Shown: piece after piece, positions 2,594-6,879 of the stretch
How positions within the stretch are numbered: position 1 is the stretch's first letter
Layout: each line of letters starts with the position of its first letter
Source of the DNA: an archaeon
GTDB taxonomy: Archaea > Iainarchaeota > Iainarchaeia > Iainarchaeales > Iainarchaeaceae
Assembly: GCA_035289485.1 (NCBI GenBank)
Contig: DATDXA010000047.1
Span: 1 to 27,350 of the forward strand
DNA: 27,350 bases
Reading direction: 5' to 3'
Notes under the pieces: generated by a model
Database searches by the model: none
The model's input: only the letters and a program-made list of their open reading frames with translations
Told to the model about the DNA's origin: nothing
Program-made: the position numbers and the translations under genes

Positions 2594-2655
2594 GAATGCG
2601 GCCTATCCCATCACTTAGATGGGATAGCCGTCGCACCCAACAGCCGAAACTGTTG
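2594..2655 (-). repeat. Structured intergenic repeat element, copy 1
   Basis: Minus strand reads CAACAGT-TTCG-GCTGTTG GGTGCGAC GG CTATCCCATC-TAAGT-GATGGGATAG GCCGCATTC. Bases 2630-2655 are the exact reverse complement of 6029-6054. Confidence 0.85.
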
Positions 2656-2657
2656 TT

Positions 2658-3590
2658 TTATGGGCAATTATCGGAAACCGCCGGAGTTTGCGTGTAAATG
2701 CCTGTGGGGTAAGCTTCTGTAATTGTATTCGCATCAATTCCTTTTCCAATCCATCTAATTTTGCACTCCGCTCCTGTTTCGCACCCGCTGCAGGTATATT
2801 GCGTTCTGCAAATTTCAGATTCAATTGATGTTTCTGCCTTGCTTGCCGCGCTGCATGAATTTGAAACCGCATCAGTTACCGTGAATTCCTTTTCCGCGAG
2901 CGCGTAGCCGGCATCCTCTCCTTCCACCGTTATCTTTGCGGCATATTTCCCTGAAAATCCCGCAGTGAAATGCTCCGTTATTTTCCTCACGCTCCCGCTT
3001 TCAATCCTTTGGATATTCCCCGTGATTTCAACGCTTAAAACCCGGTTCTTTGTGCCGCCTTCGGTTTTTTCCTGGTAAATTCCAATCCTGTATTGCACGT
3101 TCTCCGCATTCAAAGAGCCGGTGTTTAGCACTTCAAAATCAATCTGTGCGCTCTCGCCTCGGCCAAATTTTTCATTCATAATTAAGCCATTAATTTCAAG
3201 CTGCGCCGGCTCATCGCCAAAATAAATGACGCAGTCATTGATGATTTCCTTTCGCACGCACCGAAAGTACGCCTGCACGAATGTGTCTTCATTGACCTTG
3301 AGAAGCCGCGGGCTTATGGTTATTTTTCCGCTATAGCAAGTGTCTGCGCTGCTGCACTCAAACCTCACATTTCTTGTGCCGCTATCAAGCCGCGCAGCGC
3401 TAAATCCCGTGTCGCTTGAGAGCTTTATGTCATATTTGTAGTTTTTCCCTATTGTGCCTTCCGCGTAATCGAGCCCTGTTTTGAATTGCGTTTCATTGCC
3501 CTGCGGCTCGCTAAAGAACCCGAGTATTATGTAAATAACCGCCATTGCAAACACTGCAAAAATTGCAAGCCGAAGAACTGAGCCTTCCAC
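2658..3590 (-). CDS. Membrane-anchored/secreted protein with CARDB-like Ig domain and Cys-rich segments
   Basis: N-terminal hydrophobic helix, FEVLNTGSLNA and GKYAAKITV Ig/CARDB-like strands, several Cys. GTG start with SD GGGTGA. Confidence 0.7.
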   Translation of the reverse strand: MEGSVLRLAIFAVFAMAVIYIILGFFSEPQGNETQFKTGLDYAEGTIGKNYKYDIKLSSDTGFSAARLDSGTRNVRFECSSADTCYSGKITISPRLLKVNEDTFVQAYFRCVRKEIINDCVIYFGDEPAQLEINGLIMNEKFGRGESAQIDFEVLNTGSLNAENVQYRIGIYQEKTEGGTKNRVLSVEITGNIQRIESGSVRKITEHFTAGFSGKYAAKITVEGEDAGYALAEKEFTVTDAVSNSCSAASKAETSIESEICRTQYTCSGCETGAECKIRWIGKGIDANTITEAYPTGIYTQTPAVSDNCP

Positions 3591-4066: not shown

Positions 4067-5920
4067 TTATTGCTCTTCCGCTTCCCCTGCAATCTGTATA
4101 TTCACCTGCTTTTTATACATTGCAATAATTTCCTTAACCGTTGTGCTCTCCTCAGGTTTTTTCTCCCTGAATTTAATCATGCGCGGGAAACGAAGAGCAT
4201 AGCCCTGTCCCGAGCTTTTCCCTGCCGTGTGCAGCGGGCTTTTGGTTATTTCATCCGCAACAACTTCAATTACATGTCTTGGTTCAACCCACACATCGGG
4301 CTCGAGCTCAGAATCCACGCGCGGCGGCTTTTGCTTTCTCGCGTTTTTGCTCAGTTTCTCCTCAAGTTCGGAAAGAATCTGCTCAGTCATTCCCGTTCCT
4401 ATTTTTGTAATTGATTTGAACGAGTCGCTCTCCTCATCATAAACCGCGGTTAGCAGCCCTCCAAGGCCGAATTGGGTGCGTTTCCCGCGGCCCTTGTAAT
4501 ACCCGATGATTGTGAGGTCCACAGAATCATTGAGTTCGCCGCGGTAGCTTCTCTTTAGCTTAATCCACGCAAATTTTCTCGCCCCCGCAATGTATGGCGC
4601 ATTCAAATCCTTTGCAATTATTCCCTCAAGCCCGCTCTCGACATTTTCCAAAAAGAATTTCTCGATTTTTTTCGGGTCGTCTGTTTCAATGCTGCGCGTT
4701 AGTTCAATTGTTTCGCCCTTCGAAATCATTTTTGAAAGCCGCGCTCGCCTTTCCTTGAAGGGCTTAAGCATGATGTTTTCTCCGTCAATAAACATCACAT
4801 CGAATGCGAAAAGCTTGATTGGCAAATCCTGGGCCTTTTGCTCAATGTCATATTTCCTTTTCCTTGTCATCGTCACCTGGAACGGGAAATACTGCCCCGT
4901 GCCTTCATTGAATGCGAGGGCCTCACCTTCAAAAATCGCCTTTTTTGCCTTCACCTGCTCTTTGATTGCAGCAACAAGGTCCGGAAACATCGGCGTGATG
5001 TTTTCTGATTGCCTTGAAAAAATAGTTACTGCGCTTCCGTCCTTGTGGCACTGTACGCGCAGGCCGTCATATTTTGCCTCTACAGCGCACTTCCCAAGTT
5101 TCTCAACAATCTCTTCCGCGCGCGGCAGCCTCTCTGCAAGTGTTGGGCGGATAGGGGTGCCCGGCTCTATTTCGATTTTCTCAAGGCCTTCAAGCCCTTT
5201 CTTTTTGAGCCTTTGCGCGATTTCCCCCAAATCAGAAAATATATTGTATTTTTCCTCGATATGTGCGCGCAGTTTCTGCCTCGCTTTCCTATCAAACTCC
5301 TCCGCGCGCTTCTCCTCGTTTTTTTCCTTGAGCGCGCCTTCAATTTCTTTTTTTATTTTTTTGTTCTTGAGAAATTCCGAAACATAATTAACCGCGAGCG
5401 AATCCATAATGGTTGGGTCCCCGATTCCAAGGCGCATGTTTCCGAGCGGGATTCTTGTGATGAATTTCGCCTCGGCTTCAGAGGAGCTGTTTATCAGCTC
5501 CGCAAACAACTTAAGTTTCGAATCCTGGCTTCCTGTCCCTTCAGTTTGCGCAATCTTCAAAAAATTAGAAAACACTTTTGTGATTGTGAGTTTTCCAGAA
5601 AAGAGCGCGCTCTGCTTTTTTCCTTTCGCAAGGGCTTGCGCAACTTCTCCGAGGTCGCCAATTTCTTTATATTTTTTGAGAACTTCTTCTTTTGAGTATC
5701 CTGTGGCTTTTGCAATTCCCTGTTCAATTAGCCCCTCGCCCATTCCGGATTCAATGGATTGGTGCTTTGTTCCAAGCATTCCCTGCGAGAGATAAATCGC
5801 CTGCTTTATTTCATCTGCGGGCATTTTGGATAGCATTTCTGCAAGTATTGCGGTCATTTCAAGGCGCGATGAAACCTTTTCTATGCGGTCAAAGTACCCT
5901 GCGAGTTCGGAAAAGTCCAT
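4067..5920 (-). CDS. lig: ATP-dependent DNA ligase (archaeal type)
   Basis: Motif I EAKYDGLR, EGEA, FDVM, EGIIAK, WIKLK, DLTIIG and ALRFPR motifs. N-terminal DNA-binding domain contains PIP-like QSALF. Confidence 0.97.
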   Translation of the reverse strand: MDFSELAGYFDRIEKVSSRLEMTAILAEMLSKMPADEIKQAIYLSQGMLGTKHQSIESGMGEGLIEQGIAKATGYSKEEVLKKYKEIGDLGEVAQALAKGKKQSALFSGKLTITKVFSNFLKIAQTEGTGSQDSKLKLFAELINSSSEAEAKFITRIPLGNMRLGIGDPTIMDSLAVNYVSEFLKNKKIKKEIEGALKEKNEEKRAEEFDRKARQKLRAHIEEKYNIFSDLGEIAQRLKKKGLEGLEKIEIEPGTPIRPTLAERLPRAEEIVEKLGKCAVEAKYDGLRVQCHKDGSAVTIFSRQSENITPMFPDLVAAIKEQVKAKKAIFEGEALAFNEGTGQYFPFQVTMTRKRKYDIEQKAQDLPIKLFAFDVMFIDGENIMLKPFKERRARLSKMISKGETIELTRSIETDDPKKIEKFFLENVESGLEGIIAKDLNAPYIAGARKFAWIKLKRSYRGELNDSVDLTIIGYYKGRGKRTQFGLGGLLTAVYDEESDSFKSITKIGTGMTEQILSELEEKLSKNARKQKPPRVDSELEPDVWVEPRHVIEVVADEITKSPLHTAGKSSGQGYALRFPRMIKFREKKPEESTTVKEIIAMYKKQVNIQIAGEAEEQ

Positions 5921-5976
5921 GATTTACAATTGCGTGATTTATGTTAAAATAAGTTGTTTTTCGCTCGTTTGACGCT

Positions 5977-5984
5977 TTTAAAAG
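5977..5984 (+). promoter_or_regulatory. Probable TATA box of the tRNA-Pro(TGG) transcription unit
   Basis: TTTAAAAG lies 35 nt before the duplicated tRNA 5' end at 6012. The same motif lies 38 nt before tRNA-Pro(GGG) (11960 vs 11998). Confidence 0.5.
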
Positions 5985-6008
5985 AATTCCCTCACAAAAA
6001 TCCCTAGC

Positions 6009-6118
6009 AATGGGGTTATGGTATGTCCCAACAGTTTCGGCTGTTGGGTGCGACTGTCCCGTCTTTGACGGGACGTGGCTTCGCATGCCTTGCCCATAAA
6101 GAGTAATGGGGTTATGGT
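6009..6118 (+). mobile_element. Structured insertion (6023-6104) flanked by 14-bp direct repeats that include the tRNA-Pro 5' end; element copy 3
   Basis: AATGGGGTTATGGT at 6009-6022 and 6105-6118. Hairpins CCCAACAGT-TTCG-GCTGTTGGG (6027-6048) and GTCCCGTC-TTT-GACGGGAC (6056-6074). TGCGA/TCGCA closing helix. Confidence 0.75.
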
Positions 6119-6182
6119 GTAGCCTGGTCTAGCATACAAGCTTTGGGAGCTTGCGACTCCGGTTCAAATCCGGGTAACCCCA
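6108..6182 (+). tRNA. tRNA-Pro(TGG)
   Basis: Acceptor GGGGTTA/TAACCCC, anticodon arm CAAGC-TT-TGG-GA-GCTTG, T-loop TTCAAAT, discriminator A. No intron and no encoded CCA. Confidence 0.97.
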
Positions 6183-6183
6183 C

Positions 6184-6879
6184 TTATTTTTCCTTAAGCG
6201 AGCTGTGGGCTTCCCTTATAAGTTCCTTAAGGGTTGTGTAGGTTTTTTCAGCGTCCTTCTCATCGACCAAAAAGTGCAAATCTGGGGGAGTTGTTATGAC
6301 CTCAATACTAATGCCCTTCTTTGCAAGTTCGCGCGTGATTTCTGCAATCACTCCATAAACAGAATACGATGATGCCGAGAGCCTGAATGTCACAAGCGCG
6401 CTGTCGCTTAGAGAAAATAGCATCTCATCTTGCAGTTCTCCAAAGATGCTCTCAAGCCTCTGCTTTTTGGTTATCACCATGGCCTGCTCTGCTCCCTGTA
6501 TGAAAATGCGCAGCTCACCAACATTCCACTCGCTGCTCGCAAAGAGTTTTTCAAGGCGTGATACCACCTTGTCGCTTTTTTTGAAGTGGGCGTATGCCAT
6601 GTTGTCCTGAAGGCTCAGTTCGGCGTTCGCAAACATTTCCAGAATGCTCTTGTCCGGCTTGATTTCCCCGAGTTCATCGGCGTAGCGCTTGATTGCAACA
6701 ACGAGCGATTCCTCATTGATTTTCTTGTTCATTTTCTTAAGGATTGTTGGCATGATTTTTCTTGCAAGTGCCGAGTAGTTTATCACGCCCTCGCCAAGTG
6801 AATTTTTCACATGCGGGGTTGAATTTATCTGTTTTCTGACAAGCTCGGAAAGTGAGCTTTGTTTTTCCCCCTCAAACAT
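6184..6879 (-). CDS. ACT-domain protein with N-terminal helical/HTH-like domain, putative ligand-sensing regulator
   Basis: N-terminal GVINYSALARKI...VVAIKRY motif. C-terminal aspartokinase-type ACT repeat (GVIAEITRELAKKGISIEVIT...LHFLVDEKD). Minus-strand TATA TTTTTATACA at 6901-6910, so apparently leaderless. Confidence 0.8.
   Translation of the reverse strand: MFEGEKQSSLSELVRKQINSTPHVKNSLGEGVINYSALARKIMPTILKKMNKKINEESLVVAIKRYADELGEIKPDKSILEMFANAELSLQDNMAYAHFKKSDKVVSRLEKLFASSEWNVGELRIFIQGAEQAMVITKKQRLESIFGELQDEMLFSLSDSALVTFRLSASSYSVYGVIAEITRELAKKGISIEVITTPPDLHFLVDEKDAEKTYTTLKELIREAHSSLKEK

Follow-up and report, generated by a model that had tools for sequence, protein, structure and literature searches.

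Why are the first bases of a tRNA-Pro(UGG) gene present twice in this archaeal contig, on both sides of a short folded segment, and how is the gene still expressed? The 14-mer AATGGGGTTATGGT, which consists of three leader bases followed by tRNA-Pro(UGG) positions 1-11, occurs exactly at two sites in the whole window (the full 27,350-nt stretch of DNA analysed here), and the insert between the two repeats is 82 nt long and non-coding (Table 1). With up to two mismatches allowed, no third site was found in the window; shuffled sequences are expected to give 0.14 sites and reached two in 1 of 100 shuffles. The tRNA gene was placed by both ARAGORN and Rfam (57.8 bits), and ARAGORN detected a single tRNA-Pro(UGG) gene in the assembly, the one at this locus; the gene therefore has to work. 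The locus is flanked by a divergent ATP-dependent DNA ligase gene (4067-5920, minus strand) and by the end of an ACT-domain gene (6184-6879, minus strand). An earlier note on this DNA had described the two repeats (6009-6022 and 6105-6118) as bracketing an element, and both exact copies were confirmed. Its numbering of the insert as the third copy of that element was not confirmed: only two copies with the conserved core were found in the window (starting at 6029 on the plus strand and at 2655 on the minus strand).

Table 1. Coordinates of the features at the tRNA-Pro(UGG) locus and of the second element copy in the window.
Feature	Position	Strand	Basis
TATA box (TTTTAAAAG), ancestral tRNA-Pro(UGG) promoter	5976-5984	+	regex scan; same box and spacing before the uninterrupted tRNA in relatives
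Left duplication copy, leftover fragment: leader -3 to -1 and tRNA positions 1-11	6009-6022	+	exact 14-mer
Junction bases ATGTCC: filler or diverged continuation of the duplicated tRNA (gene positions 12-17 are GTAGCC)	6023-6028	+	sequence
Conserved core: stem S1 6029-6034/6041-6046, loop 6035-6040; pseudoknot 6037-6039/6051-6053	6029-6054	+	covariation
Second hairpin (GTCCCGTC/GACGGGAC, loop TTT); sequence varies among copies	6055-6075	+	folds, copy comparison
Conserved tail TGGCTTCGCA, 3' end of the element proper	6076-6085	+	common to copies of both subfamilies
19 nt between tail and right repeat	6086-6104	+	chance-level genome matches only
Right duplication copy, continuous with the gene	6105-6118	+	exact 14-mer
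tRNA-Pro(UGG), intact, intron-less	6108-6183	+	ARAGORN, Rfam
Second family copy in the window: identical core, long second hairpin	2600-2655	-	sequence match

The 96-nt segment is a recent insertion into the first bases of tRNA-Pro(UGG). The neighbourhood of the ligase and tRNA-Pro(UGG) genes is maintained in relatives, and 12 of the 14 tRNA-Pro(UGG) loci compared have a TATA box followed directly by the tRNA, with no insert. The site is empty in all six congeners: in five (G001-G005) the locus lies on one contig each, and in the sixth (G006) the call was made from two overlapping contig ends joined by eye. The earlier note had proposed that an insertion duplicated the tRNA 5' end and had suggested a comparison with sister genomes; the filled arrangement is not common to the relatives, and the empty sites in 6/6 congeners and at 12/14 loci bear the proposal out. 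The tRNA-Pro(UGG) gene of this genome is without an intron; an intron of 43-145 nt is present at the canonical position in 5/5 of the congeners with the locus on a single contig, and also in G006.

A chimeric join at the repeat, or another assembly or binning artefact, would agree with the position of several family copies at contig ends. However, contigs from the Logan collection span the insertion (6009-6118) with no differences and no joints in three runs (X1, X3 and X5) from three studies, some of which are possibly the source sample itself, and a 103-kb JGI metagenome contig from a separate collection is identical over 5900-6200. The duplication, whose reality the earlier note had wished to see checked, is thus carried unchanged by contigs of three runs and by one metagenome record, and an artefact is so improbable that it can hardly be maintained. 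An empty allele in the population was not seen in the contigs of four runs or in the single metagenome contig, and contigs drop rare variants.

The insertion is not the only one of its kind. In a genome of another genus (G012), tRNA-Pro(UGG) carries a different member of the same element family with a 16-nt duplication from -1 to position 15, and in a further genome (G016) tRNA-Pro(GGG) has a third member and a degenerate copy of its initial 12 bases (10/12 matching) in front of it. The second hairpins and tails of these three insertions are unlike each other. The genes and the element sequences are different and intervening relatives have empty sites, which speaks for three separate events. 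A search of 196 genomes of the order with the pattern of a core followed by a Pro-type D-arm returned these three arrangements only; a fourth pattern match (in G007) was discarded, being a copy beside an antisense tRNA-Gln and no tRNA-Pro case. The dinucleotide CC precedes the CAAC of the core only in the three tRNA-Pro copies and matches gene positions 16-17. The three insertions may share one point between tRNA positions 17 and 18, which needs clustered mismatches at positions 12-15. The earlier note had described the duplication at the tRNA-Pro(UGG) locus; it is real here, but it is not special to this locus, being general to the repeat family, and tRNA-Pro genes were hit independently in two other genomes.

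Archaeal non-canonical tRNA introns have a bulge-helix-bulge structure and are removed by RNA processing, and like them the element places extra sequence in or beside tRNA genes. Read as such an intron, the 96 nt would have 6012-6022 as 5' exon, and the element and the second copy would be spliced out. The mature tRNA would be the same whichever copy of positions 1-11 was used, the first fragment is paired with the 3' strand of the acceptor stem in the minimum-energy fold, and other tRNAs have family elements at canonical intron positions (L051 and L079). Nevertheless, no bulge-helix-bulge was present at any of the 15 possible splice positions, where the scan gave only all-wobble or wobble-ended 4-bp helices without flanking helices. 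Moreover, the first fragment in G016 has acceptor-stem mismatches and cannot be an exon, and in the present genome positions 12-15 past the first fragment are unlike the gene. The extra sequence lies in the leader, outside the mature tRNA. The intron reading was rejected on the lack of a bulge-helix-bulge and on the G016 mismatches, and we consider it highly improbable.

The insertion parted the tRNA from its promoter. G1 of the truncated copy is 36 nt downstream of the TATA box TTTTAAAAG at 5976, and the intact tRNA 132 nt. Elsewhere in the genome, TATA boxes lie at -38 for tRNA-Pro(GGG) and at -33 to -43 for seven other tRNAs (six of them at -33 to -37), and a scan of 6023-6107 gave no TATA-like or A/T-rich 7-mer. 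The truncated copy marks the old position of the gene, because the sole box lies 36 nt from it and nothing TATA-like follows until the intact gene. The spacing between promoter and leftover fragment is normal in G012 (about -35) and G016 (about -33) too. Two statements of the earlier note thus held: that the spacing to the truncated copy (36 nt from the box at 5976) resembles that of tRNA-Pro(GGG) (38 nt), and that no comparable TATA box precedes the intact copy, so that the tRNA was separated from its promoter.

As the sole recognisable promoter was left behind, the tRNA must be cut from a precursor with a leader of about 100 nt. We infer co-transcription from the old promoter followed by processing of this leader by RNase P: transcription would start near 6006-6009 and cross first the leftover fragment and then the folded element before reaching the tRNA, and RNase P would cut at 6107/6108. 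Contig C2 of the genome has a gene for RNase P RNA (91.6 bits, cut-off 84), which makes the removal of a long leader feasible. The released leader may be the discrete, abundant structured RNA that the earlier note had proposed as a possible transposition intermediate or sRNA. A search for RNA runs that contain the locus returned none. The start of the duplication at -3 approximately coincides with the transcription start predicted from the TATA box at 5976. The 175-nt stretch folds well (z = -4.7), and the leader alone has a predicted energy of -47.8 kcal/mol. The leftover 5' fragment can pair with the 3' acceptor strand of the tRNA, in a predicted fold 1.5 kcal/mol better than the modular one; this fold being favoured, processing might be impaired. 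Positions 6010-6026 (leftover fragment and junction) can also pair with 6083-6097 (tail and filler) through 5 + 7 bp, two of them G-U, and inverted repeats of 8 bp and 5 bp occur in comparable places in G012 and G016, respectively. There is a hint that, by pairing with it, a part of the 19-nt filler may keep the leftover fragment occupied. A search for the origin of these 19 nt (6086-6104) elsewhere in the genome returned short, chance-like matches in coding regions, and none was accepted as a source.

The inserted element belongs to a family of folded repeats. Its 26-nt core (6029-6054) has a 100% identical inverted match at 2630-2655, and these two are the sole copies with a fully identical core. 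The second window copy begins 2 nt past the stop codon of a gene for a 310-aa protein. The 11-mer TTGCCCATAAA at 6090-6100, near the 3' end of the tRNA-Pro insertion, is found again at 2656-2666 (minus strand), directly before the second copy in the window, where the 310-aa gene ends with it. Sixteen copies of the core with up to five mismatches are present in the 1.16-Mb genome. The core forms a 6-bp hairpin (CAACAG/CTGTTG) with a 6-nt loop, three bases of which pair 4 nt downstream in a pseudoknot, and the element ends in the tail GGCTTCGCA after the second hairpin.

Both helices of the core are kept by compensatory changes in a set of 45 distinct copies from this genome and its relatives. 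The pseudoknot pair 9-25 is Watson-Crick in 43/45 copies, in three pair types (shuffle mean 23.7, maximum 32): it is T-A in 30 copies, G-C in nine, C-G in four and T-G in two, with no non-pairs. The hairpin pair 5-14 is Watson-Crick in 45/45 copies, in two types (A-T 29, C-G 16). The core pattern gave 141 matches in 18/23 genomes of the taxonomic family, and the reversed control pattern gave none; a count by eye of the variable hairpin pair in these matches, for which the pattern allowed all combinations, gave 85 A-T, 54 C-G and two others. A second subfamily has the same architecture and another sequence (CCGAC-CTGCTC-GTCGG-AGGGAGC); the architecture was confirmed in a copy that precedes tRNA-Trp in this genome. 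It was found in 15/196 genomes of the order, belonging to four taxonomic families (reversed control, no matches), and its variable stem pair is always Watson-Crick in the 33 matches, in three pair types. With the second subfamily included, 38 copies are listed in this genome, in a list curated by eye from structural descriptors; loose structural descriptors alone are too noisy (150 matches vs. 78 in shuffled sequence, and 351 vs. 253).

Elements of a tandem array end at CGCA (L053). The core pairs of the family include three G-T and no A-C, and the sense fold is lower in energy in 34/45 copies; these signals are weak hints on the functional strand of the fold, and the second hairpin is unbiased. 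In Rfam, only two tRNAs match at threshold in the window, and permissive filters over 5950-6200 gave nothing besides the tRNA with an E-value below 0.85. A search of the full-text literature, supplements aside, returned no description of such an element. Head-to-tail pairs and triplets, 61-155 nt apart, were observed in relatives, some with the same target copy between them (G006 contigs C14, C62, C86 and C30; G017 C12; G007 C116; G005 C5). An unrelated hairpin repeat (CCTTTTTCTTTTC...GAAAAGAAAAAGG) fills the tRNA-Pro introns of relatives (L011, L012, L019, L022 and L024); this repeat is also present just down- or upstream of tRNA genes of the clade, including upstream of tRNA-Ser on contigs C16 and C13 of the present genome.

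Target duplications are a general property of the family. For their detection, the 35 nt preceding the first hairpin were compared with the region lying 40-170 nt to the right of that hairpin. In this genome, 4/35 copies reached a duplication score of at least 14, compared to 0.13% of 3000 random sites, and 24/35 copies have no flanking repeat. In the relatives, 10/29 sampled copies scored at least 12 (0.27% of controls), with exact repeats of 12 to 28 nt; in the second subfamily, 4/17 copies were flagged, with repeats of up to 35 nt. Overall, the duplications are 10-28 nt long when exact and extend to 35-42 nt when a few mismatches are allowed. The left repeat abuts the first hairpin at 0 nt in six of the ten strongest cases in relatives and at 1-4 nt in the rest, and the other end of the element varies. 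Tandem double insertions at one target were found at three loci (L045, L053 and L064). The duplicated targets include protein genes: on contig C9 of this genome a gene has its final 13 codons in duplicate, and in G008 a 37-nt stretch of the start of ABCE1 is duplicated, the leftover having ATA for ATG and otherwise only synonymous differences. Copies lie at the same point in the first codons of ABCE1 (RNase L inhibitor) in two genera (L047 in G008 and L066 in G013), and in the latter the reading frame is open for at least 50 codons into the element.

Contacts with tRNA genes are frequent and precise. The termini of tRNA genes make up only about 1% of these genomes; by counts made partly by eye, 5/38 copies in this genome, 6/29 sampled copies in relatives and 7/17 copies of the second subfamily touch a tRNA. 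In four genomes of three taxonomic families, tRNA-Leu, tRNA-Arg and tRNA-Ser genes have a sense copy that begins immediately past their discriminator base (L075-L078). In the present genome, tRNA-Trp, tRNA-Lys and tRNA-Ile each have an antisense copy whose end is 0-1 nt from their +1 (C49:10423-10495, C43:10860-10929 and C36:4600-4668), which implies that these tRNAs, too, have long leaders and lie far from their TATA boxes. What is duplicated at tRNA-Thr and tRNA-Leu is precisely the final 13 and 19 bases of the gene (L046 and L067). Tolerance of harmless sites accounts for the enrichment at tRNA ends, but not for the exactness of the contact. Large genes in this genome were also seen with an antisense copy of the second subfamily ending 2-3 nt ahead of their start codon (C64:11336 and C64:9407). 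On the gene strand the hairpin loop reads GGAG about 10 nt before the ATG, and the element may therefore supply a ribosome-binding site.

Much of this could also be expected of a host RNA module, maintained by selection as a processing, termination or stability signal at transcript ends, of which the tRNA-Pro leader copy would be a functional example. Compensatory changes keep the structure in nearly all copies, and divergent copies with such changes fit a selected function as well as a selfish element; an identical 24-nt core of the second subfamily is present in four taxonomic families of the order; sense copies lie 2-3 nt past stop codons in five cases, and others directly after the discriminator base of a tRNA (L075-L078). 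By contrast, the copies occur in both orientations relative to neighbouring genes, about half of them antisense within operons, and there are lineage-specific insertions with leftover gene fragments as well as tandem re-insertions at one site (L045 and L053). Contigs break at the copies, and the same tRNA works without the element at 12/14 loci of the relatives. We therefore regard a selected host module as unlikely.

Integrative elements, too, are typically marked by direct repeats lying flush with a tRNA gene end, with a 44-bp example described in PMC9897764, and the repeats at 6009 and 6105 could accordingly be taken for an integrase scar, either attL and attR of a larger, deleted element or the ends of an integrase-moved miniature. 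Integrative elements (proviruses and genomic islands) in tRNA genes, as described there, have a repeat flush with the gene end and leave the gene functional (PMC9897764), as here. However, those elements are 9-23 kb long, bear an integrase and almost always duplicate the 3' part of the gene (PMC9897764), whereas here the duplicated part is the tRNA 5' end and the 82 nt between the repeats are non-coding, with no integrase-bearing insert. The statement of the earlier note that integrative elements mostly duplicate the 3' part of tRNA genes agrees with this account, in comparison with which a 5' duplication is unusual (PMC9897764). The element is also present at many non-tRNA targets. Its unrelated targets number well over a hundred and have a duplication each, which a site-specific recombinase would not produce. 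An integrase scar is very unlikely.

With insertion, duplication, empty sites and promoter displacement observed, the locus is best explained by behaviour typical of the whole family: most likely, a family member of about 57 nt inserted into tRNA-Pro(UGG), duplicated its target and displaced the promoter, and the resulting leader is removed by RNase P. In this course of events, a member (6029-6085) of a non-coding, structured mobile family would have inserted into the first bases of the gene and duplicated the target over a stretch from -3, about where transcription starts, to tRNA position 11 or perhaps 17. The duplicate that is continuous with the gene body would keep the tRNA whole, and the other would stay by the promoter. 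Family members would enter genes, tRNA genes especially, at their extreme ends and in both orientations. The long, variable-length duplications mean that the interrupted gene end is regenerated.

The family was compared with known mobile repeats. A MITE-like C/D box sRNA element of Pyrobaculum calidifontis is described as an RNA-like module that spread within one archaeal genome (PMC6009581). No C/D boxes are present in our element, unlike in that one (PMC6009581). Like MITE and REP repeats, the family is short, non-coding, multi-copy, folded and intergenic, with lineage-specific copies. It differs from both in its pseudoknot, which is kept by covariation, and in having one precise and one variable element end. 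In contrast to a MITE, it has no terminal inverted repeats (its left end, CAACAG..., is no inverted copy of its right end, ...GGCTTCGCA), its duplications are 10-42 nt long and variable whereas those of MITEs are short and of fixed length, and no cognate autonomous transposon with matching ends was present at the tnpA and tnpB loci examined. REP and IS200/IS605 elements depend on a Y1 transposase and make no target duplication; here duplications are present, and Y1_Tnp was detected in 9/23 genomes only.

Casposons are Cas1-based transposons that make 14-15-bp duplications and are reported to integrate next to tRNA genes. The 14-nt duplication at the 6009/6105 locus and the link to tRNA genes are casposon-like, but Cas1 (PF01867) was found in 1/23 genomes of the family and not in the present genome, terminal inverted repeats are absent and the duplication length is not fixed. 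In the target-primed insertion of SINEs and LINEs, target duplications are of variable length, one end is precise and the other variable, and there is a link to tRNA transcription units. The family resembles these elements in all three respects; it differs in that no reverse transcriptase (PF00078) was detected in any of the 23 genomes of the family (63-95% complete), although a virus might supply one, in the lack of an A-tail and in not being tRNA-derived. Closest to the family are integrase-borne elements that duplicate tRNA gene ends (PMC9897764) and small non-autonomous repeats such as MITEs and the Pyrobaculum element (PMC6009581). The family can be placed among the small non-autonomous mobile repeats, and it lacks the defining features of a MITE, a REP/IS200 element, a casposon, a retroelement, an intron or an integrative element.

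Enzymes that might move the element were sought in the same genomes. Y1 transposases are present in 9/23 genomes and TnpB in 3-5/23, with IS ends unrelated to the element; Y1_Tnp was not found in G012 or G016, both of which have tRNA-Pro insertions, and no element core lay within 1.5 kb of the tnpA or tnpB loci examined in relatives. Viral contigs of IMG/VR gave no matches to either core pattern. A link to IS200/IS605 was rejected: the flanks of tnpA and tnpB are without the core, and the end of the IS200-like element in G009 is an unrelated hairpin. That IS200-like element (Y1 transposase, 169 aa) is present in at least seven copies, mostly at contig ends (L037 and six contigs), and is adjoined by a 408-aa ORF without a Pfam match.

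Three candidate ways of moving can be put forward. A DNA enzyme acting in trans could make long staggered cuts that vary in length; the folded element could be captured as the template when replication or repair switches templates at transcript ends; or an RNA or single-strand intermediate could receive its precise end from tRNA-processing enzymes. The last agrees best in form with the precise hairpin end, ragged other end, variable duplications and flush tRNA contacts of the family, but it is disfavoured by the lack of a reverse transcriptase. There is a small chance that the family represents a novel type of archaeal mobile element, with mobility linked to RNA ends. In that case master copies would lie flush with tRNA termini, where RNase Z or RNase P would free an RNA with one precise end, at the hairpin, and one ragged end, and this RNA or its single-stranded DNA equivalent would be copied back at transcript ends, producing duplications of 10-42 nt flush with the termini. 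If true, this would amount to a SINE-like life style without a recognisable reverse transcriptase, or to an undescribed mechanism of DNA insertion.

The small genomes of DPANN archaea are thought to be streamlined. Genomes of this DPANN clade carry dozens of copies each of a folded repeat that is absent from Rfam. The separate tRNA-Pro insertions in two other genomes, and the long, variable duplications that often end exactly at a tRNA or gene terminus, are new here. The insertions yield tRNA gene fragments and long tRNA leaders that confuse annotation, and the repeat copies break metagenome assemblies. As the interrupted gene end is regenerated, the element can settle in essential genes, among them tRNA genes, the start of ABCE1 and the ends of other protein genes. 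That copies lie flush with tRNA termini again and again, and that no matching transposase was found, suggests a mode of movement not yet described.
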